Assembly: GCA_035706345.1 (NCBI GenBank)
Contig: DASSVE010000163.1
Location: 12,095-76,094, forward strand
Reading direction: 5' to 3'
Origin: Acidimicrobiia bacterium
GTDB lineage: Bacteria; Actinomycetota; Acidimicrobiia; Spongiisociales; ZC4RG35
DNA: 64,000 nt
In this document: piece by piece, positions 40,383 through 58,578 of the stretch
Numbering within the stretch: the stretch's first letter is position 1
Layout: each line of letters opens with the position of its first letter
Notes under the pieces: model-generated
The model's database searches: none
The model's input: only the letters and a program-made list of their open reading frames with translations
Told to the model about the DNA's origin: nothing
Program-made: the position numbers and the translations under genes

Positions 40383-40383
40383 T

Positions 40384-41939: not shown

Positions 41940-43063
41940 CCGGCCCGGTCCGGGACCTGGTCACTTTCGCCCAGGAGCTGCGCGGGCGCGGCCTCACCGT
42001 CACCCCCGACCAAGTGGCGGACATGACCCGGGCCATCACCCTGGTCGACCCGGCGAGCCGGTCGGAAGTCCACGCAGCCCTCCTCGCCCTGGCAGTGACG
42101 GACCCGGCCCAGCGGCGCTCGTTCGACGAGGTCTTCAGCCGCTTCTTCGAGGGGAGGTTGGATCCCGGCGGCGTCTCCGACCAGACCGGCTTGGCCACGG
42201 CCTCCGCGGTCAAGCCGATCGTCCAACCGATCGGCGAGATGCCCAGCGAGGCCACCCAGTCGCAGGCGGGCGCCTCCGCGATGGACCGTCTGGCCACAAG
42301 GGACTTCGCCGACCTGGACGAGGACCAGCTCAACGAGGCACGCCGGATGGTGATGGCCATGATGTGGCAGCCGTCCGACGTCAGGACGCGCCGCTGGCGT
42401 GTCTCCACCACCGGCGTGAGCCCGGACCTGCGCCGCACGCTGCGTGGCTCCACCCGCCCCGAGGGGGACCTCATGCCCATCGTGTTTCGGGAGAGACGAC
42501 GCCGCCAGCGACCACTCATCGTCATCGCCGACATCTCGGGGTCGATGGAGAAGTACGCCGAGCTGTTCCTGGTCTTCGCCCACGCCGCCCTGCGCCGTCT
42601 CGACGACGTCGAGGTGTTCACCTTCTCGACGCATCTCACCCGCATCACCGAAGACCTGCGGAAGCGGGACGCACGCGTGGCGCTGGACAAGGTCTCGGTC
42701 CGGGTGCCCGACTGGTCCGGCGGCACCAAGATCGGCGATGCGCTCGCCGACTGGAACAGGCTGTGGAGCCGCAGACTCGCCCGGGGTGGCCCCATCGCCA
42801 TGATCCTCTCCGACGGTTGGGACTGCGGGGACCCCGACGTGCTGGCGGTGGAGATCGCCCGCCTCGCCCGGACCGTGCACAGCATCCTCTGGCTCAACCC
42901 GCTGGCGGCCCGGACCGACTTCCGACCCGCCACCCGCGGCATGCAGACCGTCCTGCCCCACATCGACCACCTGCTCCCTGCTGCGAGCGTGGTCGATCTG
43001 AGGGGTGTGGTCCGGCTTCTCGACTCGATGGCCATGCCGGGCCCGCGAATTCACAATCACTGA
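41936..43063 (+). CDS. coxE: VWA-domain protein (CoxE family)
   Basis: C-terminal von Willebrand A domain with MIDAS (IVIADISGSM...T...LSDGWD). Start overlaps the coxD stop (ATGA). The ORF-track start 41801 is over-extended. Confidence 0.82.
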   Translation: MTGPVRDLVTFAQELRGRGLTVTPDQVADMTRAITLVDPASRSEVHAALLALAVTDPAQRRSFDEVFSRFFEGRLDPGGVSDQTGLATASAVKPIVQPIGEMPSEATQSQAGASAMDRLATRDFADLDEDQLNEARRMVMAMMWQPSDVRTRRWRVSTTGVSPDLRRTLRGSTRPEGDLMPIVFRERRRRQRPLIVIADISGSMEKYAELFLVFAHAALRRLDDVEVFTFSTHLTRITEDLRKRDARVALDKVSVRVPDWSGGTKIGDALADWNRLWSRRLARGGPIAMILSDGWDCGDPDVLAVEIARLARTVHSILWLNPLAARTDFRPATRGMQTVLPHIDHLLPAASVVDLRGVVRLLDSMAMPGPRIHNH

Positions 43064-43149: not shown

Positions 43150-43419
43150 ATGACCGAGGAGAGATCCAGCCGGGGCAATCCTCGGCTGTACGAGTTGATC
43201 GAGCACTCGCCCAAGACCGGCAAGGGCCCGACGATCTGGGCATGGCCCCAGGTGATCGAGTACCTCAAAGTGGCCGGTCAGCCGGTCCAAGGGCCTTGGC
43301 CCCCGCATCAACTGCCGCGGCCGGACCCGACCGACGAGGCCCTCCCGGTCGCGGTCCCCGATCCGCAATCGAGCATGGGTGACCGTTCGCCCGACACGGG
43401 CAGCGACACCACGGACTGA
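43150..43419 (+). CDS. Small hypothetical protein (89 aa) between coxE and coxM
   Basis: GGAGGG RBS 7 nt upstream of the ATG. High GC3. Structured N-terminal half (RLYELIEHSPKTGKGPTIWAWPQVIEYLK) and Pro-rich tail. Confidence 0.4.
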   Translation: MTEERSSRGNPRLYELIEHSPKTGKGPTIWAWPQVIEYLKVAGQPVQGPWPPHQLPRPDPTDEALPVAVPDPQSSMGDRSPDTGSDTTD

Positions 43420-43448
43420 ACTGGGAGGCAGCCATTTACCCGTCACGT

Positions 43449-44309
43449 ATGAAGTACGACGCCCCCCGCTCTCTGGAAGAGGCCTGTTCCCTGCTCTCCG
43501 AGGGTGGTGGCGAGGCCAAGATCCTCGCCGGGGGCCAGAGCCTGGTCCCGATGCTCAAGCTGCGCTTCGCCTCACCCGAGATGCTGGTGGACATCAACGA
43601 GATCCCGGGTCTCGACTACCACGAGCGCGATCCTGACGGCGCCATCCGGGTGGGTGCCCTGTGCCGGCACGCCGACCTGGAACGGTCCGACCTCCTCGCC
43701 CGGCACCAACCGACCATGGCCGGGGCGGCACCCCTGGTCGCCGACCCGATCGTGCGCAACCGGGGCACGCTGGTCGGCTCGCTCTGCCATGCTGACCCGC
43801 AGGGCGACTGGGCATCGGTCGTGACCGCCCTGGACGGCTCGGTTGTGGCCCACAGCTCGAGAGGGCGGCGCACGATCCCGATCAGGGAATTGTTCAGCGG
43901 GCCTTTCCAGAACACGCTCGCCTACGACGAGATCGCGGTGGAGGCGGTGCTGCCGGCGCCAAAGGGCACCCCGGCCGGCGGTTACCTGAAGCTGGAGCGA
44001 CGGGTCGGCGACTACGCCACCGTCGGCGTGGCCGTGGCCGTCGATCTCGCCGCCGCCAAGGTGGCACGGGCCGGCATCGGCCTCACGGGAGTCGGTGGCT
44101 CCACCATCGCTGCCGACGAGGCGGCCGCCCTCCTCGTAGGGCAGTCGCTGTCACCCGAGCTCATCGGTGAGACCGCCGAGCTCGCCGCCCGGGCCGCCCA
44201 GCCGCACAGCGACCATCGCGGCAGCGCCGACTTCAAACGGCAACTGGTGCGGGTCTTCACAACACGTCTTCTGAACAGCATCACCAGGTCCGGAGAGGAG
44301 GCGGCCTGA
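43449..44309 (+). CDS. coxM: Carbon monoxide dehydrogenase medium subunit (FAD-binding)
   Basis: FAD-binding PCMH fold ([15 protein letters not shown]...) and CO dehydrogenase flavoprotein C-domain. Confidence 0.9.
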
Positions 44310-44310
44310 C

Positions 44311-44865
44311 ATGACCAGTCTTTTCGAGGAGATCAGCCCGGCCCCGGCCGACGACGTCCCTGTTCGCCAGGTGACCTTGACGATCAACGGGGAGCGGCGC
44401 TCCGCCATGGTCGAGCCCCGGCTCCTGCTGGTGCATCTGCTGCGGCAGGGTTTCAAGCTGACCGGCACCCACGTCGGATGTGACACGACCAACTGTGGCG
44501 CCTGCACGGTGCTGTTCGACGGCCGGCCGGTGAAGAGCTGCACGATGCTGGCCGTCCAGGCCGACGGCCACGATGTGATGACGGTGGAAGGCCTCGCCGG
44601 GCCCAGCGAGCTGCACGCCCTCCAGGAAGGGTTCAAGGAGGAGCACGGCCTCCAGTGCGGGTTCTGCACCCCGGGGATGATGATGGCGTCCAAGGCCCTG
44701 CTCGACGAGAACCCGCACCCCACCGAGGACGAGATCCGGTGGGCGCTCAGCGGGAACCTGTGCCGCTGCACGGGCTATCAGAACATCGTCAAGGCCGTCA
44801 TGTGGGCGGCGGACAAGCTCAGCCAAGGTGTTGCACCGGAGACCGATACGGAGGTGATGGCGTGA
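44311..44865 (+). CDS. coxS: Carbon monoxide dehydrogenase small subunit (2x[2Fe-2S])
   Basis: Plant-type ferredoxin cluster motif [11 protein letters not shown] and second cluster CGFCTPGM...CRCTGY. Confidence 0.92.
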
Positions 44866-47246
44866 CGGCTGTCGATGAGGTCAAGATCGGCGGTATCGGA
44901 GCCAGCCGGAAGCGGGTCGAGGACAACCGGTTCATCCGAGGCAAAGGCAACTATCTCGACGACATCACGCTGCCCGGGATGTTGCACATGGAGATCCTGC
45001 GCAGCCCCCTGGCACACGCCCGGATCAACTCCATCGACATCTCCAAGGCCATGGCCATGCCCGGTGTCCGCCTCGTGCTCACCGGGGAGATGATGGCGGC
45101 GCGCAACCTGGCGTGGATGCCGACGCTCTCCTACGACACCCAGGCAGTGCTGGCCACCGACAAGGTCAGGTTCCAGGGCCAGGAGGTCGCCTGCGTCATC
45201 GCCGACGATCCCTACATCGCCAAGGACGCCTGTCAGGCCATCGTCGTCGACTATGAGCCGCTCCCTGTCATCGTCAACCCGAACCAGGCGCTGGCCGACG
45301 GGGCGCCTCTGATCCGCGACGACAAGGAGAACCAGCCCGACAATGTGATCTACGACTGGGAGGTGGGCGACAAGGAGGGGACCGACCGCGCCTTCGCCGA
45401 GGCGGACGTCATCTCCAAGCTGGAGCTGCACTATCCCCGCTCCCACCCCTCCCCCATCGAGACCTGCGGGTCGATCGCCGACTTCAACCGGGCCACCTCG
45501 AAGCTGACCGTCTATCTGACCACTCAGGCGCCGCACATCATCCGGGCCGCGGTCGCCCTGGTCGCCGAGCTCCCCGAGCAGATGATCAGGATCGTGGCCC
45601 CTGACATCGGCGGCGGCTTCGGAAACAAGGTCCCGGTCTACCCGGGGTACGTGGCCTCCATCCTGGCCTCCATCCTCCTGGAGCGGCCGGTCAAGTGGAT
45701 CGAGGATCGGACCGGAAACCTGATCTCGACCGGTTTCGCCCGCGACGTCTACCTGAAGGGCGAGCTGGCACTTCGGCGTGACGGGAAGATCCTCGGTGTG
45801 CGGATGAACACCCTGGCCGACCATGGCGCCTTCTTCTCGGACGCCCAGCCCTCCAAATTCAAGATCGGGCTGATGCACTCGGCGTTCGCCTGTTACGACA
45901 TCCCGACCGCCCATCTGGTCGCCCGGGGCGTGTACACCAACAAAGCGCCCGGCGGGGTGGCCTACCGCTGCTCCTTCCGGATCACCGAGGCGATGTTCTT
46001 CCAGGAGCGAATGGCCCAGGCCGCCGCCGACGACCTGGGGATGGACCAGGCCGAGTTCCGCCGGATCAACTTCGTGCGCGACGACGACTTCCCGCACCGG
46101 ACCCCATTCGGGTTCCTGACCGACTCGGGTCAATACGGGAAGTGCCTGGACGTCGGTCTGGAGGCCATCGGCTACCAGGACTTCCTCCGCCAGAAGGAGG
46201 AGGCGGCCAAACGGGGCCGTCTGCTCGGGATCGGCATCTCGACCATGACCGAGCCGCTCGGCGCCGGCAACAGCCGGGAGTACGACATCCTCGGTATCAA
46301 GATGTTCGACTCCGCGGAGTTGAAGATCCACATGACCGGGAAGGCGCTCCTCCGCACTGGCGCCAAGTCCCAGGGTCAGGGGCACGAGACGACGTGGGCG
46401 CAGATCGTCGCCCACGAGCTCGGGATCCCGGCCGAGGACGTGGCCGTCGAGGAGGGCGACACGGACACGGCGCCGTTCGGCATGGGCACCTACGCATCCC
46501 GCAGCACGCCCGTGGCCGGGGCCGCCGTGGCCATGGTCTCCCGCAAGATCAGGGCCAAGGCTCGCAAGATCGCCGCCCATCTCCTCGAGATCTCCGAAGA
46601 GGACGTCGAGTGGGAGCTGGGCCGCTTCTACGTCCGGTCCAACCCCGAGCGGGGCGTGACCATCCAGGAGTGCGCGGCAGCCGCTTACTCCAACATGCCC
46701 GACGGAATGGAGCCCGGGCTGGAGAACGTGGCCTACTACGACCCGCCCAACCTCACCTGGCCCTTCGCCTGCTACATCGCCACGGTGGAGGTCGACCCCG
46801 AGACCGGGGTGTGGGATGTGCTCCGGGTGGTGGCCGTGGACGACTGCGGCGTCCGCATCAACCCGATGATCGTCGAGGGTCAGATCATGGGTGGTCTCAC
46901 CGAGGCGTACGCCATGTCCAACATGCAGTTCATCACCTTCGACGAGAACGGCAACTGCATCGGGGCCAACTTCACCGACTACCTGCTGCCCACCGCCTGG
47001 GAGACCCCGGGATTCGAGCTGCACGAGGTGGTCACGCCCTGTCCTCACCACCCAATCGGGGCCAAGGGGATCGGCGAGTGCGCCGCGGTTGGTGGCCCGG
47101 CCGCCTTCGTCAACGCGGTGATGGACGCTCTCAAGGGCACCGGGGTACGGAACATCGACATGCCCCTGTTCCCGGACCGTGTCTTTCAAGCTCTGCAGAC
47201 CGGTCGGGACGTGAGCGGCGCACCCCCGGTGAGGGTCGACGCATGA
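44862..47246 (+). CDS. coxL: Carbon monoxide dehydrogenase large subunit, form I (molybdopterin MCD cofactor, Mo-S-Cu site)
   Basis: GTG start overlapping the coxS stop. Active-site loop VAYRCSFR (form I AYXCSFR signature) and MoCo-binding GGGFGNK motif. The ORF-track start 44655 is over-extended. Confidence 0.9.
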
Positions 47247-48172
47247 GCCCGAGGTCGGGCGAGGGTTGGCGGATCCTGCAGCTGGCCGACGAGTTGGCCG
47301 CCAAGGGCGAGAAGTTTGCCCTGGCCACCGTGGTCTGGCGGCAGGCCCCTTCATCCGGCCATGAGGGCGCCCGCGCCATCGTCACCGCCGACGGGGAGAT
47401 CCACGGGTGGATAGGCGGGGCCTGCGCCGAGCCGGTCGTGATCCGTGAGGCGCAACGGGTGATGGCCGAAGGCGAACCGCAGCTGATCCTGCTCGGCGCG
47501 CCCGATGACTTCGGTCATGTTCCCGAGGGCATGCTGCAGGTCCCGATGGCGTGCCAATCGGAGGGGGCTTTGCAGGTCTACATCGAGCCGGTCCTGTCTG
47601 CACCGCGTCTGGTGGTGGTGGGCCGGTCCCCGATGGCGACCACCCTGGTCGACCTGGCATCGATCCTGGGGTGGCGGGCCGAGTTGGTCGACTCCCATGA
47701 CTTCACCGCCGACCGGGTCGAGAGGGACGCCATTGTCATCGTCGCCACCCAGGGCCACGACGACGAGGACACCCTGGAGCGGGCCGTGACCGCAGACCCC
47801 GCCTTCGTCGGCCTGGTCGCCTCCCGGAAACGGGGCGAGGCCGTCCTCGGATACCTCGCCGACCGTGGTCTCGACAGGGAGTCGCTGCAGAGGGTCCGAT
47901 TCCCTGTGGGGGTGGATCTCGGGCACACCACACACAACGAGATCGCGGTCTCGGTGCTCGCCGAGTTGGTCTCCCTCCGGGCCAAGGGCGAGCTGGAAAG
48001 AACCGCGACGGCCGTCACCGAGCCGCCGGCCACCGCCATCGACCTGGTTTGCGGGATGACCGTGCCGGCCGACGAGACCAGCCGCCCGTTCGTCTACCAA
48101 GGCACCACTTACTACTTCTGCGCTCCGGGATGCCGGACCGCGTTCGAGAAGAACCCGACTGCCTACCTCTGA
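47243..48172 (+). CDS. coxF: XdhC/CoxF-family accessory protein fused to a C-terminal YHS/TRASH-type metal-binding domain
   Basis: XdhC_CoxI N-domain (FALATVVWRQAPSSGHEGARAIVTADGEIHGWIGGACAE), Rossmann-like XdhC_C domain (PRLVVVGRSPMATTLVDLASILGW), C-terminal DLVCGMTVPADE...YYFCAPGCRTAF (YHS motif). Confidence 0.8.
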   Translation: MSPRSGEGWRILQLADELAAKGEKFALATVVWRQAPSSGHEGARAIVTADGEIHGWIGGACAEPVVIREAQRVMAEGEPQLILLGAPDDFGHVPEGMLQVPMACQSEGALQVYIEPVLSAPRLVVVGRSPMATTLVDLASILGWRAELVDSHDFTADRVERDAIVIVATQGHDDEDTLERAVTADPAFVGLVASRKRGEAVLGYLADRGLDRESLQRVRFPVGVDLGHTTHNEIAVSVLAELVSLRAKGELERTATAVTEPPATAIDLVCGMTVPADETSRPFVYQGTTYYFCAPGCRTAFEKNPTAYL

Positions 48173-48184
48173 GGAGAAGACAGA

Positions 48185-48769
48185 GTGCTGATCAAGAACT
48201 CGATCGAAGTCGACCAGCCGATCGACAAGGTGTGGGAGTTCTGCCAGGACGTGCCCCAGGTCGCGTCGTGTCTCCCCGGCGCCGAGCTCACCGACGAGCT
48301 GGGCCCCGACCAGTACGCCGGGAAGGTCGGTATCGCCATGGGCCCGGTCAAGATGCAGTTCGCCGGGACCGCCGACGTCAAGCAACGCGACCCCGAGACC
48401 AAGACCATCATCATCGACGCCGCCGGCGCCGACGCCAAGGGGCAGGGTCAGGCGGCCCTGGGGCTCTCCGTCCGTCTGGTCCCCACGGCCGGTGGCACCA
48501 GACTGGAGGTGGAACAGGACATACAGCTGTCCGGGGCCGCGGCCCAGTACGGGCGGGGCATGATCAGCGACGTCTCACAGGTGATGATGCGCGACTTCGC
48601 CGTCAACATGCAGGCCCGTCTCGACGCGTTCGCCCGTGGCGTCAGCCCGGCCCAGGTGCAGACGGCGCAGAGTGCAAGCGGGCTCACGATCGGTTTGAGG
48701 GCGGCGTGGATGGCCTTGAAACGGGTGGCCAGGCGCTTCTTCCTCCCCTACCAGCCAACGGGTAACTGA
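48185..48769 (+). CDS. coxG: CoxG (SRPBCC-family CO dehydrogenase subunit G)
   Basis: MLIKNSIEVDQPIDKVWEFCQDVPQVASCLPGAELTD...DAAGAD...; polyketide-cyclase-like SRPBCC fold typical of CoxG. Confidence 0.8.
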   Translation: MLIKNSIEVDQPIDKVWEFCQDVPQVASCLPGAELTDELGPDQYAGKVGIAMGPVKMQFAGTADVKQRDPETKTIIIDAAGADAKGQGQAALGLSVRLVPTAGGTRLEVEQDIQLSGAAAQYGRGMISDVSQVMMRDFAVNMQARLDAFARGVSPAQVQTAQSASGLTIGLRAAWMALKRVARRFFLPYQPTGN

Positions 48770-48779
48770 GGAGGTCGAC

Positions 48780-49034
48780 ATGACATGGTGGTGGATCGGG
48801 AACGTGATCCTGCTGGTAGCGGTGATCCCCGTGCTGATAGCCCTGCTCAACCGGGTGCTGGCGGCGCTGGAGCGGATCCGGGGAGCATCGGACCGGATAT
48901 TGGCGGGCGGTGTGCAACTGATCGGAGAGGTCGATCGGGTGCCTGAGCTGCTCGCAACGACAGACGAGACCATCGAAGACGTGTCGGTCGGCGCGGTCAG
49001 GTACGCCGGGTCGGTCGCCAAGCTGCTGGGTTGA
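48780..49034 (+). CDS. Small single-pass membrane protein, paralog 1 of 5 (84 aa)
   Basis: N-terminal TM helix (WWWIGNVILLVAVIPVLIALL) then an amphipathic helical segment. GAGGAGG RBS. GC3-rich. Confidence 0.6.
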   Translation: MTWWWIGNVILLVAVIPVLIALLNRVLAALERIRGASDRILAGGVQLIGEVDRVPELLATTDETIEDVSVGAVRYAGSVAKLLG

Positions 49035-49044
49035 GAGGAGAGTC

Positions 49045-49272
49045 ATGCCAGCTGCAGCCGTAGTCACCCTGGTGCTAGCGACGCTGATAATCGCCGCCGC
49101 GGCACTGGGCCTCATCCGGGTTATAGGCCATCTCTCGGCGATCTTGAAGACGCTGCGCGCCCTCACCGGAGGCGTCGATGTGGTCGCCGAGAAGACCAGC
49201 ACCGTTCCCGCCGTCGTCGGTTCTGTGAACGCCAACCTGAAGCCGGTCAGCGACTTCGCCGAGTCGATCTAG
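49045..49272 (+). CDS. Small single-pass membrane protein, paralog 2 of 5 (75 aa)
   Basis: TM helix (AVVTLVLATLIIAAAALGLI) plus amphipathic tail. GAGGAGAG RBS. Confidence 0.6.
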   Translation: MPAAAVVTLVLATLIIAAAALGLIRVIGHLSAILKTLRALTGGVDVVAEKTSTVPAVVGSVNANLKPVSDFAESI

Positions 49273-49278
49273 GGGGTC

Positions 49279-49542
49279 GTGATGAGTGAATTGTTCGAGG
49301 GCAACACCGGCTGGCTGGTCGGATACATCATCGGGATCGTCGTGGTCCTGGTGGTCGTGGCGCTGGTGGTCCCGATCCTGGTCCTGGCCCGAAAGATCGG
49401 GAACGAGGCGGAGCTGATCAACGAGAGCCTGAAGCGGTCCGTGCAGAACACGGCCGCCCTGGCCGATCTGGCCACCACCAACACCATGGCGATCAACGTC
49501 ATCGAGGGCCTGAAGCGCGGTCGTCAGCGTCTGGGAGGTTGA
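49279..49542 (+). CDS. Small single-pass membrane protein, paralog 3 of 5 (87 aa)
   Basis: TM helix (WLVGYIIGIVVVLVVVALVVPILVLA) plus amphipathic tail. AGGGGG RBS. Confidence 0.6.
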   Translation: MMSELFEGNTGWLVGYIIGIVVVLVVVALVVPILVLARKIGNEAELINESLKRSVQNTAALADLATTNTMAINVIEGLKRGRQRLGG

Positions 49543-49832
49543 GGATGGTTCTAGGACTCACCGAATCGCAGGAGACCCTTTGGACCATCGCCAACTGGGC
49601 CGGGCTGGCCGTTGTCGTGGCGGTGGCCGTCCTGCTCACCATCCTGGTTCTCCTGGTGCGGCGGATCGATCACAAGGTGGTCGAGATCAAGGCGACCCTG
49701 AAAGAGGCCGAGGCCAACACCGCCAAGGCCTCCCTGCTCGACACCACGTCGGCGGGCGTCGACATGGTCCTCGCCGAGGGTCTCGAGCATCACCTCTTCC
49801 TGGGCCGGGTGCTGGGGAAGGTGCGCTCATGA
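49539..49832 (+). CDS. Small single-pass membrane protein, paralog 4 of 5 (97 aa)
   Basis: TM helix (WAGLAVVVAVAVLLTILVLLV) plus amphipathic tail. ATGA overlap with paralog 3. Confidence 0.6.
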   Translation: MRMVLGLTESQETLWTIANWAGLAVVVAVAVLLTILVLLVRRIDHKVVEIKATLKEAEANTAKASLLDTTSAGVDMVLAEGLEHHLFLGRVLGKVRS

Positions 49833-50188
49833 ACGGGCTGGTGCTGTTCACCGTGATCGACATCGTCCTGCTGATCGCCGGTCTGGCGATCTACCTCTGG
49901 ATCGTCGGCTCACAGCTCAATCGGATCGCAGCCAATTTGGAGGAGTGCGACGAGCTGGTGGCGAAGATCAACGCCAATGCCGCCACCATCGAGGGCAACC
50001 TCGAGCACGTGAACCGGACCGGCGGTGTCATCGCCGGCGCATTGCCGCTGCTGTACAGCATGGCGGAGGGCATCGTCACCGGGGCCACCTACGACCCGGA
50101 GAAGGTCCCGGAGCGTGGCCCGGCCGTGCCCGCGTCCGGTCGTCGGCGTTCCCGACTCCACGAGGCGGTCGGCTACCGGCCGGACTGA
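49829..50188 (+). CDS. Small single-pass membrane protein, paralog 5 of 5 (119 aa)
   Basis: TM helix (LVLFTVIDIVLLIAGLAIYLWIV) plus a longer amphipathic tail. ATGA overlap with paralog 4. The ORF-track start 49580 is over-extended. Confidence 0.6.
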   Translation: MNGLVLFTVIDIVLLIAGLAIYLWIVGSQLNRIAANLEECDELVAKINANAATIEGNLEHVNRTGGVIAGALPLLYSMAEGIVTGATYDPEKVPERGPAVPASGRRRSRLHEAVGYRPD

Positions 50189-50189
50189 G

Positions 50190-50633
50190 TCAGGGTCGGG
50201 ACGGGTCCCGACCCGTGGTCAGGGGGCCGGTGGTGCCGGGGGCGTCGTAGTCCCCGATCCAGTGCTCCTCCCAGGCCTGGTCGTAATGGTCGGAGTTGCA
50301 CCCGGGTTTGTAGATGGCGACCAGCTCGCGGGTGATCTGCTCCCGATGCGTCGGCAGCGCTCCCGGTGCCTCCAGATAGCAGACGTGGAGGCGGTAGCGA
50401 TCCCCTCCCACCCTGTTCAGCCAGCACCGGGCTGCGGGATGACGAAACGGGAACCCCTCCCCGCTCAGGTCGTCGCTGTGACCGACGTAGATCACTCCGT
50501 AGCGCTCGGGTTTGGCCTCAGGCTCGGGCCGATAGAGGAGGGCGTAGACACCGGCCCTCTTGGGCGGTGTCCAGCCGGCGAGGAGCCGGGGACCCTCGAA
50601 CGAGTAGCCGGCGAGGGTGCCGAGACGGATCAC
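50190..50633 (-). CDS. Hypothetical protein with a GIY-YIG-nuclease-like motif set (147 aa)
   Basis: GVYALLY...(17 aa)...YGVIYVGHSDDLSGEG...R...E...ELVAIYKPGCN resembles the GIY/YIG-R-E-N pattern of the GIY-YIG superfamily. GTG start overlapping (GTGA) the upstream acidic-protein gene. Confidence 0.45.
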   Translation of the reverse strand: MIRLGTLAGYSFEGPRLLAGWTPPKRAGVYALLYRPEPEAKPERYGVIYVGHSDDLSGEGFPFRHPAARCWLNRVGGDRYRLHVCYLEAPGALPTHREQITRELVAIYKPGCNSDHYDQAWEEHWIGDYDAPGTTGPLTTGRDPSRP

Positions 50634-50953
50634 TCGGCCTCCTCCCCGGTGACCCAGGCGTCGGGTATGTCCTGGTACCAGTCCATCTCCTCCTCGTCGG
50701 CGATGGTCTCCACGTTCACGATGGGCCACACCGGCAGACCGGCCTTCTGGACCGCCTCGCCGAACACGTCCCGGGCCAGGAGAACCGCTTGGTCGGAGTC
50801 GTCGGCCTCGACCAGGATCTGGATGCCATAGGAAGGCGTGCCCATCCCGGTGGCGATGCCACCGTGGACCGCCACGGCGTCGGCCAGCTCCACCACCTCA
50901 TCGAGGGAGATCACCCGATCGCCCTCAGCCTGCAGTGACACACTCCACATCAT
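50630..50953 (-). CDS. Hypothetical acidic protein (107 aa)
   Basis: GC3-rich; Asp/Glu-rich C-terminus (ADEEEMDWYQDIPDAWVTGEEAE). Translationally coupled to the downstream GIY-YIG-like gene. Confidence 0.45.
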   Translation of the reverse strand: MMWSVSLQAEGDRVISLDEVVELADAVAVHGGIATGMGTPSYGIQILVEADDSDQAVLLARDVFGEAVQKAGLPVWPIVNVETIADEEEMDWYQDIPDAWVTGEEAE

Positions 50954-50960
50954 GAGACGC

Positions 50961-52097
50961 TCATCTCAGGCCGGGGAGCACTTCGGCCAGCGACTCCAGC
51001 CCGGCCAGGTCGCGGCCCGACATCAGGAGGTCGATGTGTGGCTCGGCCACGATCATTCCGAGGCTGCCGGGGAGGTCTCCGACGTCCTCGCCGACATGGG
51101 GGTTGACCCACACCACCTTGTGGCAGAGCAGCGAGAGCCTCTCCATCGCCTGTTCGAGGACGGCGGGATCGCCTCGATCGAGCCCGTCGGAGCAGATGAC
51201 GACGATCGCCCCACGGCTCATCCCGCGGCGACCCCATCCCTTCACGAATGCAGTGATCGAATCGCCGATCCGGGTCCCACCCTCCCAGTCGAAGACGAGA
51301 CGGGCGGCCCGATCCAGTGCATCGTCAGGTCTCCGTCTCTCCAGGGCCGGGGTGATCCGGGTGAGACGGGTCCCGAAGCAGAACACCTCGACCTTGGTGC
51401 TGGCGCGCCGTGCCGAGTAGGCGAACTGCAGCAGGTTGCGGGAGTACTCGGCCATGGATCCGGAAACGTCCAGAAGCAGGACCAATGGCCGGATCTTGGG
51501 CCGTCGGCTGCGCCAGAACAGCTCTGTTGGCTCCCCCTGCTGACGCATGGTGGCCCGGACCGTCCTTCGCAGGTCGGGGCGACCCGATGCCGCCGGCCGG
51601 GTCCGTCGGGTTCGGCGTCGGGGCGGGATGAGCTTCATCCGGTTCATGATCCGACGCAGGGCTGCGAGCTCCTCCTCGGTGCAGAGTGCGAAGGCCTTGT
51701 TGCGCCAGATCTCGATGTCCGACGCCACCAGACCGAGGGTCGCCTCCTCCTCCCGGTCCGTGCCCTCCGGGCCCGATTCGGTGGCCGGGACCTCGATGAC
51801 CGCCTGGTTCTCGATCTCCGATCTCTTCAGGACGGCGCGCACCGGCTCGGGCAGCCGGTCGTCGTAGCCGAGGAAGTAGCGGCGGAACACCCGGTCGTAG
51901 ATGGGGATCTGCTCCCGTTTCGTCAACAGGGTGGTCCTCCCCGCCCAGTACAGGTCGAGGATGTCACCCGGCTCCAGGACCGCCATGGCGGCGCAGTAGG
52001 CGAGCACCTCGCCGGTCCCCACAGCCAGGCCCTCGTCTCTCAGCTCGGCGCCGAAGTCGGCGACCATCTCCACGAAGGGGAGACGGTCGTCAGCCAT
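50961..52097 (-). CDS. VWA-domain protein (second CoxE-like paralog)
   Basis: C-terminal VWA with MIDAS (LVLLLDVSGSM...T...CSDGLD). Start overlaps the upstream MoxR gene by 8 nt. Confidence 0.8.
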   Translation of the reverse strand: MADDRLPFVEMVADFGAELRDEGLAVGTGEVLAYCAAMAVLEPGDILDLYWAGRTTLLTKREQIPIYDRVFRRYFLGYDDRLPEPVRAVLKRSEIENQAVIEVPATESGPEGTDREEEATLGLVASDIEIWRNKAFALCTEEELAALRRIMNRMKLIPPRRRTRRTRPAASGRPDLRRTVRATMRQQGEPTELFWRSRRPKIRPLVLLLDVSGSMAEYSRNLLQFAYSARRASTKVEVFCFGTRLTRITPALERRRPDDALDRAARLVFDWEGGTRIGDSITAFVKGWGRRGMSRGAIVVICSDGLDRGDPAVLEQAMERLSLLCHKVVWVNPHVGEDVGDLPGSLGMIVAEPHIDLLMSGRDLAGLESLAEVLPGLR

Positions 52098-52959
52098 CGA
52101 CCAGCTCGTCGATCCGCTCCAGGACCATCTCGAGGTCGTCCCGCTCCTTGACCACGGCACCCAGAGTCTCGGAGGCGGTGACCTTGTCGAGATCGGGCTC
52201 GCCCAGGACCTGGAGAGTGCTGACCCAGTCGATGGTCTCGGCGACGCCGGGCGGCTTGGCCAGGTCGAGCTGGCGCAGACGGTTCACCGCCGCCACCACT
52301 TTGCGGGCGATCTCCTCGGTGGCGCCAGGTGCCCGCACCAGGACGATCTCGACCTCCCGCTCGGCGGACGGGTACGGGACCCAGTGGTACAGACAGCGCC
52401 GTTTCAACGCGTCGTGCAGCTCGCGGGTCCGGTTCGAGGTCAGGATCACCAACGGCGGCGAGTCGGCGCTGATGGTCCCGATCTCGGGGATGGTGATCTG
52501 GAAGTCGGAGAGCAGCTCGAGCAGGAAAGCCTCGAACTCGTCGTCGGCGCGATCGATCTCGTCGATCAGCAACACCGCTGTCGACCCGGCGCGGACGGCG
52601 GTGAGAAGCGGTCGCTCCAGGAGGAACTTGGGGCCGAAGAGCTGGTCCACCTGGGTCTCGTCGGCGAGCTGCGCCTCGGAGAGGGCGCGGATCTGCAGCA
52701 TCTGACGGGCGTAGTCCCACTCGTACAGGGCCTGGTTGGTGTCGATGCCCTCGTAGCACTGGAGACGGATCAGACGACGATCGAATACCGAGGCCAGCGC
52801 CTTGGCCAACTCGGTCTTGCCCACCCCGACCTCACCTTCGAGCAACAGGGGCCGACCCAGCTCCATGGCCACGTAGACCGCCGTGGCCAGACCGCGGTCA
52901 GCAAGGTACCCGCCCTCGGCGAGACGCTCGGTCAGGGTGGCGACGTCGGTGGGGGCCAT
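52090..52959 (-). CDS. MoxR-family AAA+ ATPase (second CoxD-like paralog)
   Basis: Walker A GEVGVGKTELAK, Walker B LLIDEIDRAD. Roughly 55% identical to coxD at 41061 by eye. Confidence 0.85.
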   Translation of the reverse strand: MAPTDVATLTERLAEGGYLADRGLATAVYVAMELGRPLLLEGEVGVGKTELAKALASVFDRRLIRLQCYEGIDTNQALYEWDYARQMLQIRALSEAQLADETQVDQLFGPKFLLERPLLTAVRAGSTAVLLIDEIDRADDEFEAFLLELLSDFQITIPEIGTISADSPPLVILTSNRTRELHDALKRRCLYHWVPYPSAEREVEIVLVRAPGATEEIARKVVAAVNRLRQLDLAKPPGVAETIDWVSTLQVLGEPDLDKVTASETLGAVVKERDDLEMVLERIDELVDG

Positions 52960-52975
52960 GCCCGGCCCCTCCCCG

Positions 52976-53230
52976 CTACTGATCGTTCCGGCCAAGGACG
53001 AGGTCGCGGATCGAGCCGCCGTCGGTGCTCAGCTTCCCCTCACGCTCCAATCGGGCCCGCCAGGCGGCGCCGATGTCGGTGCCGGGCTCGGCGAGCCCGT
53101 CGAAGGACACTCCCCGCATGTTCCGGCACGGCTTGGAGGGGCTGCAGTCCTCGTCTAGGTCGAAATGATCGTGACTCACCATCCAGACCGACTGGAGGAC
53201 ATCGGCGCTGGTGTCTTCCTGGGCATTCAT
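52976..53230 (-). CDS. Small hypothetical protein (84 aa), translationally coupled (ATGA) to the upstream XdhC gene
   Basis: GC3 about 85%. Start overlaps the xdhC stop. No recognisable motif. Confidence 0.4.
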   Translation of the reverse strand: MNAQEDTSADVLQSVWMVSHDHFDLDEDCSPSKPCRNMRGVSFDGLAEPGTDIGAAWRARLEREGKLSTDGGSIRDLVLGRNDQ

Positions 53231-54147
53231 CGCTCGACCAGTCTACCGGCGGAGGCCCGCTCGGCTATCGCCTCGGCCACGATCGAGACCGCGATCTCCT
53301 CCGGTGAGTCGGCCCCGATGTCGAGCCCTGCAGGGCCCCGTACCCTGCTCAGGTCGGTCTTGCCCCGGTATGCCAGCCAGTCGGCCCGATCGCCCTGCAT
53401 CTTGTGACTCCCCACCGAGCCGATGTACCCGGCACCACTGTCCAGGGCGGCGGCGAGAGCCGACCCGGCCAGCTCCAGGTCGTGCGCAGCCACCACCACC
53501 ATGTCGTTGGCCGACGTGGTCGCGATCAGACCGGTGGCTTCGGCGGTGCTCGTGCTGAGACGCGACTGCCAGCCCAGGTAGGCGCCCAGCGAGACCAACG
53601 CCTCGGCAATCGGCCCGCCGCCAACGACGATCAGTTGGGGGACGGCGGAGAACACCGAGACCACCCGATTCTCGGCGATGGTCGAACCCGGTGGCCCTTG
53701 GAACGCCTCCCGAATCACATCGTCGGCGTCGGCGACATTCTCCTCCCAGTAGACCTCGCCGGCAACCACGGTGTCGTCGGCCAGCCGGACGTCGAGACAG
53801 AACTTGCGGCGCTCCAGAGCCAGGTCCCATACCCCTCCGGGAATCGTCTCGGCAGGAATCACCAGACATGTGGCGCGGCCACCGGATGCCAGACCGGCGA
53901 TCAGGGCGTCGACCTCGGAGACCTCGAGCTCTACGAGCCTGCCCTCGGCGAGTCTCCCGACGTGATCGGCGAGCTTCCCGTCGAGTGCGCCGCCGGCGAC
54001 ACCACCGATCCGGCCCCCACCCGGTGTGAACACGACGGCATCGGAAGGGTCGGAGACCGCCAGTCCCTCCGAGGCCACTATCCAGGCCACATCAGCCCTG
54101 GTGCCCGCCTGGAGACACGCCGCAACGGTGAGCGCGATGCTGTACAT
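53227..54147 (-). CDS. XdhC/CoxI-family molybdoenzyme maturation factor (306 aa)
   Basis: N-domain (AWIVASEGLAVSDPSDAVVFTPGG...GGALDG) and Rossmann-like C-domain (PQLIVVGGGPIAEALVSLGAYLGW). ATG at 54147. The ORF-track start 54429 is over-extended. Confidence 0.78.
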   Translation of the reverse strand: MYSIALTVAACLQAGTRADVAWIVASEGLAVSDPSDAVVFTPGGGRIGGVAGGALDGKLADHVGRLAEGRLVELEVSEVDALIAGLASGGRATCLVIPAETIPGGVWDLALERRKFCLDVRLADDTVVAGEVYWEENVADADDVIREAFQGPPGSTIAENRVVSVFSAVPQLIVVGGGPIAEALVSLGAYLGWQSRLSTSTAEATGLIATTSANDMVVVAAHDLELAGSALAAALDSGAGYIGSVGSHKMQGDRADWLAYRGKTDLSRVRGPAGLDIGADSPEEIAVSIVAEAIAERASAGRLVER

Positions 54148-54196
54148 GACGGGGACTCTACGTCCAGGTCCTGAATGAGAGTCGACGGCTACCGTT

Positions 54197-54511
54197 GTGC
54201 GCATGAGAAGCCAATTGGCACTCCGTGACAAGTGGGTCAGCGAGGGCAAGAAGGTGGCCGTGGCCACGGTGATCAAGGTCCACGGCAGCGCCCCCCGACC
54301 GGAAGGGTCCAAGTTCCTCGTCTCGTCCGACGGTGACATGGAGGGCTCGGTGAGCGGGGGTTGTGTGGAGAACGACGTCTTTCTCCATGCCCAGGAGGTC
54401 ATCGAGACCGGGAAGCCCAAGAAGGTCACCTACGGCATCGCCGACGAGGACGCCTTCGAGGTCGGCATGTCCTGCGGCGGCACCATCGACGTCTTCATCG
54501 AGCCCTGGTGA
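54197..54511 (+). CDS. Stand-alone XdhC_CoxI N-terminal-domain protein (104 aa)
   Basis: [41 protein letters not shown]...[10 protein letters not shown], the canonical XdhC N-domain including the GGC motif. Confidence 0.65.
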
Positions 54512-55281
54512 GCGATCTGAATCAGGCCATCCAGAGCCTGCTCGACGCCGAGGTCTTCGGCTCGGTCGCCACCGTCGTCGAGGGCCCGGACACGGGGGCC
54601 AAGGCGGTGATCGACGGCGCCGGCGTGATACTCGCCGGTGAGCTCCCGGCGGCCATCGTCGACGACGTCGTCGCCGACGCCCGGACACTGATGAGTCACG
54701 AGCAGCATCGAACCCTCGACTACGGCGAGCACTCCGTCTTCATCGAGACCCTGGCCCCGCCCCCCGATCTCCTCATCTTCGGTGCGGTGCACATCGGCCA
54801 GGCCCTGGCTTCCTTCGCCACCCAGATGGGTTATCGGGTCACGGTCGTGGACTCGAGGGCCCCCTTCGTCACCGAGGCCCGGTTCCCGACGGCCCATCGT
54901 CTCCTGGTGGGCTGGCCCCGGGATCTCATGGACCAGCTCCAGTTCGACCGCCGCACCTGGGTGGTCGTGCTGTCCCACGACCCGCGGCACGAGACCCCTC
55001 CGCTGGAGGCCGCGCTCAAGTCGGAGGCCCGCTACATCGGGGCCATGGGATCGAGACGCACCCACGATCTGAGGGCTGCCCGGCTGAAGGAGCTCGGGTT
55101 CGACGACGAGGACCTGGCCAGGATCCACTCCCCCGTCGGCCTCGACATCGGCGCCGAGACCCCGCAGGAGGTCGCGGTGTCGATCCTGGCCGAGATGACG
55201 TTGGTCCGGTACGGAGCCGGCTCGGGGATCTCGCTGCGCGGGGTCGAGGGCCGGGTCCACAAGCAACGCGGAGACGAGTGA
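54508..55281 (+). CDS. XdhC-family protein (second XdhC_CoxI-like segment plus Rossmann-like XdhC_C domain). GTG start overlaps the preceding stop (GTGA) in a different frame, so this may be a split or frameshifted gene.
   Basis: [28 protein letters not shown]...[28 protein letters not shown]...IGAMGSRRT. Confidence 0.65.
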
Positions 55282-55955
55282 CCGACCACGACCTGGCCGC
55301 CCTGGTCATGTCGGCGGAGCGCCGCTGGATGGACAGCTGGGTGGCCGGGCCGACCTACGAGGGGACACCGATACGCCGCGGCGGGCTAGCGCCCGACCTG
55401 GAACTGACCGACGAGAGCGGGGAACGGGTCAAGCTGAGCGGGTTCTGGGAGAACGGTCCCGCCCTGGTCATGATGTGGCGTCACCTCGGGTGCGGGTGCG
55501 GTCTGAAGCGGATCGACCGGCTCTCGGAGGAGTACCAGCGCTATCTCGACGCCGGGCTCGAGGTCGTCGTGGTGGCCCCCGGGGAGAGGGAGCGGGTCCT
55601 CGCCTACAAGGAGAAGTACGGGCTGTTGCCGCCGGCGCTCGCCGACCCCGAGTACCGGGCTCATCGCGCCTTCGGCCTGTCTCATTGGTCGAGAGAGCAG
55701 GTGTTGTACGGCCAGCCCGACGAGTACTGCTCGCTGACCACCGAGATGGGCGAGAGATACCAGGCGGAACGTCGCGCCGAGGGGCGCAGCCTGGTCGACG
55801 ACGCCTGGATGCAGTCCGCCGAGTTCGTGGTCGATCAGACCGGCACGATCAAGGTGGCCTACTACTACAACTACTGCGAGGACTACCCGGATCCACGCAT
55901 CTTCGAGACCGCGGCTCGTCTCGCCGTCTCCGACCTTCCCACAGATCGGCACTGA
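55278..55955 (+). CDS. Thioredoxin-fold (AhpC/TSA/redoxin-like) protein with a CGC motif
   Basis: 225 aa. [21 protein letters not shown] in the position of the peroxiredoxin/redoxin active site. GTG start overlapping the upstream stop. Confidence 0.5.
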
Positions 55956-55986: not shown

Positions 55987-58578
55987 ATGCTGTTGCTGGA
56001 GCGGGAGGCCCTGGTTGCTGCTCTCGACGAGCGTCTGACCGCGGCGGCATCGGGGTCAGGGTCACTGGTGCTGATCGCAGGTGAGGCCGGGGCGGGCAAG
56101 ACCTCGCTGATGCGCTCCTTCGTCTCCTCGGCGGGCGAGCGGGTGCTGGTGATCGAGGGCGCCTGCGACCCGCTCACAACCCCCCGGCCAATGAGCCCGC
56201 TGCTCGACTTCGCAGCCGATCCCGACTCGGGGCTAACGGGCATCGTTTCCGAAGGTCGGACCGGAATCGACGTGTTCGCCGAAGTCCTCGACCGGCTGAG
56301 GAACTCGATCCGTCCCATAGTGCTGTTCATAGAGGACATCCATTGGGCCGACGACGGCACGCTCGACTTCCTTCGCTACATCGGGCGACGTATCACTCAG
56401 ACCAAGTCGGTCATGGCCTGCACCTACCGGGACGACGAAGTGGGTGTGGATCACCCGCTTCGCTCGGTTCTCGGCCAACTGGTGCCACTCCCCTCCACGC
56501 ATCGCCTGACCGTTCCGCCGCTGACCCTCGATGCGGTCGCCCTCCTCGCCAAGGACCAGGCCCTGGATCCAGAGGAGCTGCTCGACCTCACCGGGGGCAA
56601 CGCCTTCTTCGTCACCGAGGTGCTGGCGACCGGCTCGGACCTGCCGGCCACGGTCCAGGATGCCGTCCTGACCCGGGTGGCAGGGCTCGGTCCCGAGACG
56701 CGCAGGGTGGTCGAATCGGTCTCGATCGCCCCCCGCTCTCTCGAGATCGACCGGGCTGCGGCACTGGCGAAGACCAGCGTCGAGAGCGCCGACGAGGCGG
56801 TCGGCGCCGGTGTGCTGCGCAGCGACGGTGTCAGCCTGGGCTTCAGGCACGAGATCGCCCGCGCCGCCGTCGAGGCGGCCATCCCGCCGGCCCGTCGTCT
56901 CCAGATGCATCGGTCGATGATCGCTCTCCTCGAGGAGGAGGGGATTCGGGACGCGGCCCGCATGGCCCATCACGCTCGTGAGGCACAAGAGCCGCATCTC
57001 ATCGCCCTCTACGCGCCCGAGGCAGGAGAGCGCGCCCTCGCCAATGGCGCGAGACGGGAGGCGGTCGAGTTCTACCGAACGGCCCTGGACCACGGAACCG
57101 GGATGGACGAGGATGCAGCCGCCGACCTCAGGGTGAAGCTGGGGAGCCAGCTCCGGATCATCGATCGGCCCGAGGAGTCGATCGAGCATCTCGACCTGGC
57201 CATAGCCCGCTACCGGGAGACGGGCGCCACCGAGAAGCTGGCCGACGCATTGGGTCTCCTCCAGGGGGCGTTGTGGAACCTGCGCCGCTTCGCGGGAGGT
57301 CAGGCTGCGATCGACGAGGCCATCGCCGCATTGGAGCCCCTCGGTCCTTCCGAGGCATTGGGCATGGCCCTCTACCGCGACGCCCACCACCAGATGCTGG
57401 CCCGCCACGCCCGCCCGGCCTTCGCGCAGATCGAACGCGCCGCCGCGATCGCCGATCGGGTCGGGTCGGAGCGGGTGGGATGGCTGGCGCAGATGATGAC
57501 TGGCACCATCCACATCGTGGTCGGCGATGCCGAAGAGGGGGCACGTCTGCTGGAACACTCGGCGCAGAGGGCCGAAGACATGGAGGACAGCCACTTCCTC
57601 TCCATTGCCCTTGGGATGTTGGGCAGTGGCGGCGGCGAGGCTCGTCTGTATCCAATCGCCATCGACGCCCTGGAGCGGGGTGTCGAACAAGGCATAGCCA
57701 CCGACGAGGACTACGGGGTCGCCTACAACCGGTCCTGGCTGGCACGAATCGCCTTCGAGCAGGGCCGGTGGGACGAGGTCTCCGAGATGACGGAGCTGGT
57801 CTACAGGAGCACCGCCCAGCGAGAAGGGATCGCCTTGCTGACGGCGATGAGCGCCCTGGGAAGGGTCAGGGTGCGACGGGGCGACCCGGGTGGGCTCTCG
57901 CTTCTCGAGGAGATGGTGGAGTTGGGAAGGGACCACGAGCTGCAGCACGCCTGGACCGCCATCTGCGGCAGGGCGGAGTATCACTGGCTCACCGGCGCCC
58001 CCGAGAAGGGTCTCGACGCCCTCGGACCGGCCTACGAGCGCGCCCTGGACACGGACAGCTCCTGGGCCCGCGGGGAGATCGGGTTCTGGATGTGGCGGGC
58101 CGGGGCCATCGACCGGCCCCCTCCTGGCGCCGCCGAGCCGTTCGCTTTGCAGATGTCCGGTGATTGGCGTGCCGCCGCCGACACCTGGAGGGCGATCGGC
58201 TGCCCCTACGAGGTGGCGATGGCGCTCGCCGACGGGGAGGTGGAGGACCAGCTGGAGGCGCTGGAGATCCTGGACGTCTTGGCGGCCCGCCCCCTTGCCG
58301 ATCGGATCAGGGCCTCGCTTCGCGACCGGGGCCATCCGGCGGTGCCGAGGGGACCAAACCGCGACACCATGTCCAACCCGGCGGGCCTGACCAACCGTCA
58401 ACTCGAGGTAGTCCGGCTCATAGCCGAAGGGCTCAGCAACGACGAGATCGCCGCCAGGCTGTTCCTGTCGAAGAAGACAGTCGAGCACCACGTCTCCGCC
58501 ATCTACTCCAAGCTGGGTGTCGAGACGCGCGCCAAAGCGGTCAAGGCCGCCGCCGAAGTCGGGGCGTTGCAGAGATAG
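55987..58578 (+). CDS. LuxR-family (LAL/MalT-like) transcriptional regulator: N-terminal AAA/NACHT-like ATPase, TPR-like middle, C-terminal LuxR HTH
   Basis: Walker A GEAGAGKTSLMR. C-terminal LTNRQLEVVRLIAEGLSNDEIAARLFLSKKTVEHHVSAIYSKLGV (LuxR/FixJ HTH). Confidence 0.85.
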   Translation: MLLLEREALVAALDERLTAAASGSGSLVLIAGEAGAGKTSLMRSFVSSAGERVLVIEGACDPLTTPRPMSPLLDFAADPDSGLTGIVSEGRTGIDVFAEVLDRLRNSIRPIVLFIEDIHWADDGTLDFLRYIGRRITQTKSVMACTYRDDEVGVDHPLRSVLGQLVPLPSTHRLTVPPLTLDAVALLAKDQALDPEELLDLTGGNAFFVTEVLATGSDLPATVQDAVLTRVAGLGPETRRVVESVSIAPRSLEIDRAAALAKTSVESADEAVGAGVLRSDGVSLGFRHEIARAAVEAAIPPARRLQMHRSMIALLEEEGIRDAARMAHHAREAQEPHLIALYAPEAGERALANGARREAVEFYRTALDHGTGMDEDAAADLRVKLGSQLRIIDRPEESIEHLDLAIARYRETGATEKLADALGLLQGALWNLRRFAGGQAAIDEAIAALEPLGPSEALGMALYRDAHHQMLARHARPAFAQIERAAAIADRVGSERVGWLAQMMTGTIHIVVGDAEEGARLLEHSAQRAEDMEDSHFLSIALGMLGSGGGEARLYPIAIDALERGVEQGIATDEDYGVAYNRSWLARIAFEQGRWDEVSEMTELVYRSTAQREGIALLTAMSALGRVRVRRGDPGGLSLLEEMVELGRDHELQHAWTAICGRAEYHWLTGAPEKGLDALGPAYERALDTDSSWARGEIGFWMWRAGAIDRPPPGAAEPFALQMSGDWRAAADTWRAIGCPYEVAMALADGEVEDQLEALEILDVLAARPLADRIRASLRDRGHPAVPRGPNRDTMSNPAGLTNRQLEVVRLIAEGLSNDEIAARLFLSKKTVEHHVSAIYSKLGVETRAKAVKAAAEVGALQR

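Follow-up and report, generated by a model that had tools for sequence, protein, structure and literature searches.

The window analysed here, a 64,000-nt stretch of contig DASSVE010000163.1 (assembly GCA_035706345.1) from an Acidimicrobiia bacterium, carries on its minus strand, at 50190-54147, a tightly coupled six-gene operon that we call module 2. The operon encodes a MoxR ATPase and a VWA protein together with an XdhC-family protein and three small proteins, and it lies tail to tail with a form-I Mo-Cu CO dehydrogenase (CODH) operon. Starts and stops within module 2 overlap or lie at most 16 nt apart throughout. Its genes, in the order in which they would be transcribed, are:

53227-54147, minus strand: XdhC2, 306 aa, divergent XdhC-family protein, first gene of module 2
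52976-53230, minus strand: orf84, small conserved protein; 4-nt ATGA overlap with XdhC2
52090-52959, minus strand: MoxR2, 289 aa, CoxD-like MoxR AAA+ ATPase
50961-52097, minus strand: VWA2, 378 aa, CoxE-like VWA protein; 8-nt overlap with MoxR2
50630-50953, minus strand: acidic protein, 107 aa, no family assignment
50190-50633, minus strand: GIY-YIG-fold protein, 147 aa, last gene of module 2; GTGA overlap

Coding frames were parted from shadow open reading frames (ORFs) by codon-position G+C (GC3; overall the DNA is 65-72% G+C) and then scanned with Pfam and NCBIfam. GC3 analysis backs all of the listed genes as coding frames. The start of MoxR2 was taken as the ATG that GGAGAAGGG precedes, discarding a TTG at 52995, and that of VWA2 was set by its 8-nt overlap with MoxR2, discarding a GTG at 52160. 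Among relatives the six proteins have mean column identities of 75-84%; being so conserved, they are genes and not chance ORFs. An earlier sequence-only reading of this DNA had given the gene inventory and operon order correctly, as frames, Pfam assignments and conservation in relatives now confirm; it named all six genes while setting the boundary at 50961, and the operon in fact reaches 50190.

The neighbouring genes that bear on module 2 are all on the plus strand:

41061-41939, plus strand: MoxR1, paralogous MoxR ATPase of module 1; Pfam AAA_5
41936-43063, plus strand: VWA1, paralogous VWA protein of module 1; ATGA overlap with MoxR1
43383-44309, plus strand: coxM of the form-I Mo-Cu CODH, by Pfam
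44275-44865, plus strand: coxS of the form-I Mo-Cu CODH, by Pfam
44862-47246, plus strand: coxL of the form-I Mo-Cu CODH; GTG start
47243-48172, plus strand: XdhC-YHS, CoxF-like XdhC with a C-terminal YHS/TRASH domain; Pfam XdhC_CoxI, XdhC_C and YHS
48185-48769, plus strand: CoxG (SRPBCC); Pfam COXG, E 4.7e-17
48780-50188, plus strand: five small single-pass membrane ORFs, one N-terminal hydrophobic segment each
54203-54511, plus strand: XdhC_N, 102 aa, N-terminal half of a canonical molybdenum cofactor (Moco) chaperone
54508-55281, plus strand: XdhC_C, 257 aa, C-terminal half of the same chaperone; GTGA overlap with XdhC_N

The MoxR1-VWA1 pair (41061-43063) stands directly upstream of coxM. 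The window CoxL has the form-I active-site loop AYRCSFR and is 54% identical to CoxL of Afipia/Oligotropha carboxidovorans OM5 (plasmid pHCG3). A tblastn search over the 64 kb found exactly one CoxM/S/L set, so the sequence-only reading was right that the window holds no second catalytic subunit; its count of three to four XdhC proteins and two MoxR/VWA pairs also stands, as three XdhC equivalents in four genes and two pairs. An 863-aa ORF at 55987-58578, considered as a second catalytic subunit, was rejected, since Pfam makes it a LuxR/AAA_16 regulator. The two convergent operons end with their stop codons 1 nt from each other (50186-50192).

The same reading had called module 2 an orphan, a label that its genomic context does not bear out. 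Relatives of VWA2 at 70-80% identity come from metagenome-assembled genomes (MAGs) of Acidimicrobiia. Two 21-kb loci on megabase-scale contigs, L001 and L003 (10 kb on either side of VWA2), show the six genes in the order of the window, convergent to coxMSL, XdhC-YHS, CoxG and five small ORFs, and contain no second CoxL. In both, MoxR1, VWA1, XdhC_N and XdhC_C form a single operon, which is divergent from XdhC2 in one locus and upstream of coxM in the other. A forward census, with an orf84 alignment as probe, one genome per species and loci annotated by tblastn, yielded 77 loci, nearly all from Acidimicrobiia and a few labelled Nitriliruptoraceae or Nanopelagicales. At the species level the full six-gene module was found in 56 of the 59 loci with room for it. 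All 53 loci with at least 9.2 kb downstream had CoxG or XdhC-YHS convergent to it, which ties module 2 to a form-I coxL cluster wherever the flank is long enough. The coxL gene itself fell within 10 kb in 46 of 53 loci with enough flank, AYRCSFR was present in all 46 linked CoxL matches that cover the loop, and the median gap between the cox operon and module 2 was 1.5 kb. Module 1 was divergent in 17 loci, co-directional in 5 and missing from the upstream flank in 27, and four loci had only XdhC_N/XdhC_C divergent, as in the window.

For a reverse census, metagenomic contigs were sampled through XdhC-YHS. Module 2 was present in 24 of 26 XdhC-YHS clusters with at least 8 kb downstream. Eighteen loci, each reaching 4 kb or more upstream of coxM and 2 kb or more past orf84, made up a set of full islands; module 2 was the sole MoxR-VWA pair in 15 of these, three had an extra generic pair, and MoxR1 was near coxMSL in none (0/18). 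One compact island, L108 (47% GC), has the order TerC, XdhC2-like, MoeA, fused XdhC, MocA-like, coxMSL, XdhC-YHS, CoxG and small ORFs, followed by the convergent GIY-like, acidic, VWA2, MoxR2 and orf84 genes and then by ModA, ModB, MoaC and MoaA. Exact-sequence lookup assigns its proteins to Candidatus Planktophila (Nanopelagicales, class Actinomycetes), a group of genome-streamlined freshwater bacteria. Module 2 thus occurs in at least two classes, Acidimicrobiia and, through Nanopelagicales, Actinomycetes. Given this spread, and its survival where few other genes are retained, module 2 is by its distribution the constant element and putative CoxD/CoxE equivalent, with module 1 an optional extra.

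Other islands carry a generic pair of the type found on pAO1, the nicotine-catabolism plasmid of Paenarthrobacter nicotinovorans, and in Embleya. Such a pair lies upstream of and divergent from orf84 in L050 and L072, where XdhC2 was undetected at its usual site upstream of orf84, and beyond orf84, also divergent, in L142, L151 and L160, which have an XdhC2-like gene upstream of coxM. The second MoxR-VWA pair therefore appears to be interchangeable between lineages.

Both pairs have intact Walker A/B and MIDAS motifs, in the window and in all homologs checked. MoxR2 matches Pfam AAA_5 (E 2.3e-14) and AAA, with a Walker A motif GEVGVGKT and a Walker B motif LLIDEID that are intact in 104 of 104 homologs. 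VWA2 matches VWA_CoxE (PF05762; E 6.6e-55, 186 bits, cut-off 26.4), and its MIDAS (metal ion-dependent adhesion site, DxSxS) reads DVSGS and is intact in 99 of 99 homologs; the MIDAS of VWA1 is present in 23 of 23. Neither pair reaches the NCBIfam MadB and MadC equivalogs (MadB, 290 for MoxR2 and 285 for MoxR1 against a cut-off of 475; MadC, 73 for VWA2 and 57 for VWA1 against 600). Among solved structures, none matches VWA2 by sequence and MoxR2 matches only midasin AAA domains. An exhaustive search of 1.84 billion representatives showed a compact VWA2 clade that grades into a continuum at 40-45% identity.

Modules 1 and 2 contain anciently diverged paralogs, with 56% identity between MoxR1 and MoxR2 and 34% between VWA1 and VWA2. 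The sequence-only reading had posed duplication against acquisition as a question for trees; neighbour-joining (NJ) trees, which have no bootstrap support and are rooted arbitrarily on the Oligotropha proteins, put module 1, module 2 and the pAO1/Embleya-type clade in three separate groups, with VWA2 beside the generic type. Given those identities and the monophyly of each paralog, recent duplication of the pair was rejected. The pAO1 VWA protein is 37% identical to VWA2 and 31% to VWA1. Against OM5 CoxD, MoxR2 has 53% identity over 283 aa and MoxR1 57%, and VWA1 and VWA2 are each 31-32% identical to CoxE (VWA2 itself 32%). With both pairs about equally distant from the OM5 proteins, one-to-one orthology to CoxD/CoxE is not resolvable.

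The three XdhC equivalents, XdhC_N/XdhC_C, XdhC-YHS and XdhC2, are clearly differentiated in sequence. CoxI, CoxF, pAO1 XdhC, XdhC_N and XdhC-YHS share the conserved Cys in the motif (S/G)GGC(x)E. XdhC_N (Pfam XdhC_CoxI, E 2.3e-26; 50% identical to pAO1 XdhC and 36% to CoxI) has the motif GSAPRPEG...SGGCVE with an invariant Cys54, and XdhC_C (Pfam E 3.9e-45) is 41% identical to pAO1 XdhC. This pair had been described as a split XdhC. There are indeed two genes, and they are not a broken one: XdhC_C follows XdhC_N directly in L001 and L003 too, the genes are translationally coupled, and both are fused in Candidatus Planktophila-like loci (in L108 at 4093-5415, minus strand). We rejected a pseudogene on the grounds of this conserved two-gene arrangement with its GTGA overlap. 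XdhC-YHS has OM5 CoxF as its best match (33%) and conserved Cys residues at 61, 104, 270, 293 and 297, of which C61, the Cys of the GGAC motif, is invariant and C270, C293 and C297 belong to the YHS domain. The fusion, kept in 55 related loci, fits a role in copper delivery. XdhC2 matches Pfam XdhC_C (PF13478, E 7.9e-25), and PDB entry 2we7 matches its C-terminal half only; the N-terminal XdhC_CoxI domain is below the Pfam threshold (17.2 bits, cut-off 24.3). Its best relative is XdhC_C at 32%. XdhC2 is without the motif Cys, GGC.E being replaced by GGALD (consensus GGALDG over 65 sequences), and its sole conserved Cys in 65 loci is C11.

The three small proteins of module 2 have no Pfam or NCBIfam match, and a permissive Pfam scan (E ≤ 5) was also empty. 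For orf84 there are 2906 homologous clusters. Its core residues W16, D26-E27, C29, P31, K33, C35 and N37-M38 are at least 95% conserved across 107 sequences, giving an invariant CxPxKxC[RK]NM motif within a core of DE-C-x-P-x-K-x-C-[RK]-N-M plus AW...L.R.GKL; its AlphaFold2 (AF2) model has low confidence, with a predicted local distance difference test score (pLDDT) of 57. Its His pair, in an SHDH motif, is not conserved beyond close relatives, so the Cys/Met core was preferred to a His-based metal site. The acidic protein has 23 D+E against 3 K+R and is conserved in 102 loci, including an N-terminal SV....GDR motif. The last gene product, with 1963 homologous clusters, had been guessed to be GIY-YIG-like, and at the level of fold the guess was right. 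Its AF2 core has a pLDDT of about 90, and its 19 best Foldseek matches in PDB are all GIY-YIG domains (UvrC, R.Eco29kI) at probabilities of 0.87-1.0. The top matches are the UvrC N-domain 1yd6 and R.Eco29kI 3mx4 (E 4.5e-3, probability 1.0), and the TM-score, normalised to the target, is up to 0.63. Read from the alignment and without residue-level structural superposition, R74, E103 and N113 do not vary, 47 of 56 sequences have Tyr at Y49, and at Y30, the first catalytic Tyr, 30 of the 56 have Tyr and 26 have Phe. This last substitution makes nuclease activity uncertain.

We read module 2 as a variant of the CoxDEF-type maturation system already known. The CODH of Oligotropha coxD mutants has an MoO3 site, and coxE and coxF mutants are stopped at later, copper-related steps (PMC4240915). 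OM5 and the window alike have MoxR, VWA_CoxE and XdhC proteins beside form-I coxMSL and coxG. The OM5 genes, however, run coxMSLDEFG, whereas module 2 is a separate convergent operon; the window also has two MoxR-VWA pairs, a YHS domain on its CoxF homolog and an extra, Cys-less XdhC2, and by BLAST its orf84, acidic and GIY-YIG-fold proteins are without a pHCG3 counterpart. In Mycobacterium smegmatis the CODH-linked MoxR (MSMEG_0748) has ATPase activity and binds the neighbouring VWA protein, MSMEG_0751 (PMC12657314), again an actinobacterial MoxR-VWA pair encoded next to a form-I CODH. The mycobacteria differ, as compared by description and not by sequence, in having a single pair described, directly after the CODH genes. 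In the plasmid collection, the nearest annotated relatives are the pAO1 and Embleya trios, with 37-41% identity to VWA2 and 52-58% to MoxR2. These differ in serving Cu-free molybdenum hydroxylases and in having a single fused XdhC with the canonical Cys and no orf84, acidic or GIY-like genes. An AAA+ ring working with a MIDAS-bearing VWA adaptor on a folded metalloenzyme has been reviewed (PMC12657314, PMC4240915); BchI-BchD, NorQ-NorD, CbbQ-CbbO and RavA-ViaA follow the same general logic and are related to module 2 at the superfamily level only. A single MoxR-VWA pair per cox cluster is described in the literature we searched, and that incomplete search did not find dual MoxR-VWA pairs, these small proteins or a Cys-less XdhC in cox clusters.

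We consider it likely that module 2 serves specifically to mature the adjacent form-I Mo-Cu CODH and is the lineage's constant equivalent of CoxD/CoxE. By analogy with the Oligotropha mutants, the canonical XdhC (XdhC_N with XdhC_C) would hold the molybdopterin cytosine dinucleotide (MCD) cofactor and insert it into apo-CoxL. The AAA+ ring of MoxR2 would then dock by way of VWA2, with its MIDAS, and open the folded enzyme at the expense of ATP for sulfuration of Mo, and the CoxF-like XdhC-YHS, encoded right after coxL, would deliver Cu(I). The Cys-less XdhC2 and orf84, with its CxPxKxC[RK]NM motif, might act as a lineage-specific adaptor and a sulfur or Cu(I) relay, and MoxR1-VWA1 would be an older paralogous pair kept as an auxiliary by some lineages only. 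A bolder version, possible if doubtful, makes orf84, the acidic and GIY-YIG-fold proteins and the Cys-less XdhC2 hitherto unrecognised obligatory factors for assembly of the CuSMoO2 site in actinobacterial CODH, with orf84 as the sulfur or Cu(I) relay, the nuclease fold put to another use and, in two-pair organisms, sulfuration and copper insertion shared out between the pairs.

Several points weigh against assigning module 2 to CODH maturation. Two XdhC-YHS clusters, L107 and L131, are without it within 8-9 kb and have glyoxalase and transporter genes where it would be. The 15 single-pair islands represent only about four lineages, about 11 of them being Planktophila-like, and are not independent observations. 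The association itself is synteny in MAGs, annotated by tblastn, and both scans were seeded with components of the cluster (orf84 motifs, close relatives of XdhC-YHS), so that clusters without both were left unsampled. The nearest VWA2 outgroups (46-49% identity) have catabolic hydroxylases without Cu, or genes of aromatic degradation, as neighbours: in Nocardioides marmotae a MoxR-VWA pair stands on its own within an aromatic-degradation cluster, and the other outgroup adjoins a CoxMSL-like catabolic cluster. The pair type is therefore not intrinsically CODH-specific. A part for a nuclease-fold protein in metal-centre assembly is hard to account for. Gene content, motifs, conservation and strict genomic linkage are what we observe; from them we infer every biochemical step.

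The sequence-only reading had offered two functions for the module. In one, it would be an orphan set for the maturation of some other molybdenum hydroxylase, with its genes at another place in the genome. Cu-free enzymes are indeed served by MoxR-VWA-XdhC trios (in the pAO1 nicotine pathway, Embleya and L085), VWA2 resembles the generic type more closely than VWA1 does, and the host genome is viewed only through a 64-kb window. We nevertheless think this most improbable: the linkage to form-I coxL is strict (53/53 loci) despite rearrangements all around, module 2 is the sole pair in 15 of the 18 full islands, compact Mo/Moco/CODH islands of streamlined genomes among them, and neither the window nor the 21-kb loci L001 and L003 have a second CoxL, all of which contradicts service to a molybdoenzyme elsewhere. 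In the other, both modules would act on CoxL, each pair obligatorily taking a different step in two-pair genomes; for example, MoxR1-VWA1 with the canonical XdhC would insert and sulfurate Moco, and MoxR2-VWA2 with XdhC2 and orf84 would insert Cu. The pairs are tied to different XdhC types, MoxR1-VWA1-XdhC_N-XdhC_C (L001, L003 and 17 more loci) as against XdhC2-orf84-MoxR2-VWA2; they are old, individually monophyletic paralogs with catalytic motifs intact in both, and sulfuration and Cu insertion are genetically separable in Oligotropha. Such a division is possible where a genome has two pairs, but it is not a general rule, one pair being enough in many lineages: 15 of the 18 full islands have module 2 only, a single pair suffices in Oligotropha and Mycobacterium, and module 1 varies in position and is replaced by a generic pAO1-like pair in some genomes. 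An obligate division of labour is thus unlikely, and if either pair is "extra", it is module 1.

The acidic and GIY-YIG-fold genes could alternatively be an independent cassette, such as a nuclease with an acidic inhibitor, unrelated to CODH maturation. The fold search returns GIY-YIG nucleases only, and a small, extremely acidic protein whose gene directly precedes it, with a GTGA overlap, may be reminiscent of nuclease-inhibitor or immunity pairs. The two genes nonetheless keep their place in 56 of 59 loci, in both Acidimicrobiia and Nanopelagicales and in streamlined genomes too; about half of the homologs have Phe for the GIY tyrosine, which speaks against a conserved nuclease activity; and among homologs whose context was fetched, none is outside a CODH setting. 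We regard a separate cassette as quite unlikely and count both genes as part of the probable maturation operon.

Aerobic Mo-Cu CODH removes large amounts of atmospheric CO. The assembly of its Mo-S-Cu site is known in outline only, from mutants of one proteobacterium (PMC4240915), and the need for several assembly factors is the stated reason for producing CODH at native levels and not by overexpression (PMC12202499). Both the Acidimicrobiia and the freshwater acI actinobacteria are lineages abundant in the environment, and their CODH has the same five or six accessory genes alongside (24 of 26 clusters in the reverse census). Three of these genes belong to large families without annotation, with about 2000-2900 clusters in each of the two families searched, and module 2 offers a concrete list of candidates for the missing components of sulfur and copper delivery. 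Genomes with one pair and with two are a natural experiment. For annotation, a likely error is corrected: the separate MoxR-VWA-XdhC operon is to be treated as part of the cox cluster and not as an orphan.

One further element at the head of module 2 is the gap between its first gene and the divergent XdhC_N:

54148-54202, no strand: divergent spacer XdhC2/XdhC_N, 55 bp counted from the ATG conserved in relatives

The sequence-only reading had given it as a tight 49 bp that implied shared regulation. The spacer is short, and 49 bp is its length only with the GTG at 54197. An alignment with five relatives shows TANNNT-type hexamers conserved at a distance of 7-9 nt from both start codons (plus strand, TACCGT; minus strand, TAGAGT), and these suggest back-to-back promoters with leaderless or near-leaderless transcripts. 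A scan for sigma-70 consensus promoters and terminators found nothing, as expected for actinobacterial DNA of 67% GC. Shared regulation is locally plausible, with -10-like hexamers at both starts, but it is not conserved. Elsewhere the divergent partner is a different operon, or XdhC2 is relocated, and because the partner differs between genomes any shared regulation would be only local.

Outside these operons the nearest genes are:

40327-41007, plus strand: DUF6624 gene, just upstream of MoxR1
55278-55955, plus strand: redoxin, AhpC/TSA-type, coupled to XdhC_C; Pfam AhpC-TSA, E 2.4e-13
55987-58578, plus strand: LuxR-family regulator, 863 aa, with AAA_16, TPR and GerE domains; adjoins redoxin downstream

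A redoxin gene also comes next after XdhC_C in L008, and a part for it as thiol reductant in cofactor handling is conceivable. Beyond the LuxR-type regulator are genes for an SCO4226-like protein, a LytR_cpsA_psr protein and phosphoenolpyruvate (PEP) carboxylase. The five small membrane ORFs between coxG and module 2 are consecutive, 75-119 aa long and without family assignment; they may be paralogs of one another, and five ORFs of matching sizes occupy the equivalent position in L001, L003 and L108. No terminator-like structure is seen at 50186-50192, and transcripts of both strands may overlap there. Many forward-census MAGs (L013, L015, L016 and others) are titled "uncultured Acidobacteriota" and are probably mislabelled; their proteins are 65-75% identical to Acidimicrobiia homologs. 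In some relatives another operon of the xanthine-oxidase family lies just upstream of coxM and divergent from it (L107, 1309-5300; L118, 1972-5700; L120, 183-3000); its CoxL-like protein is 37-54% identical to the window CoxL. In L118 and L120, module 2 is still at the CODH end despite that second operon.

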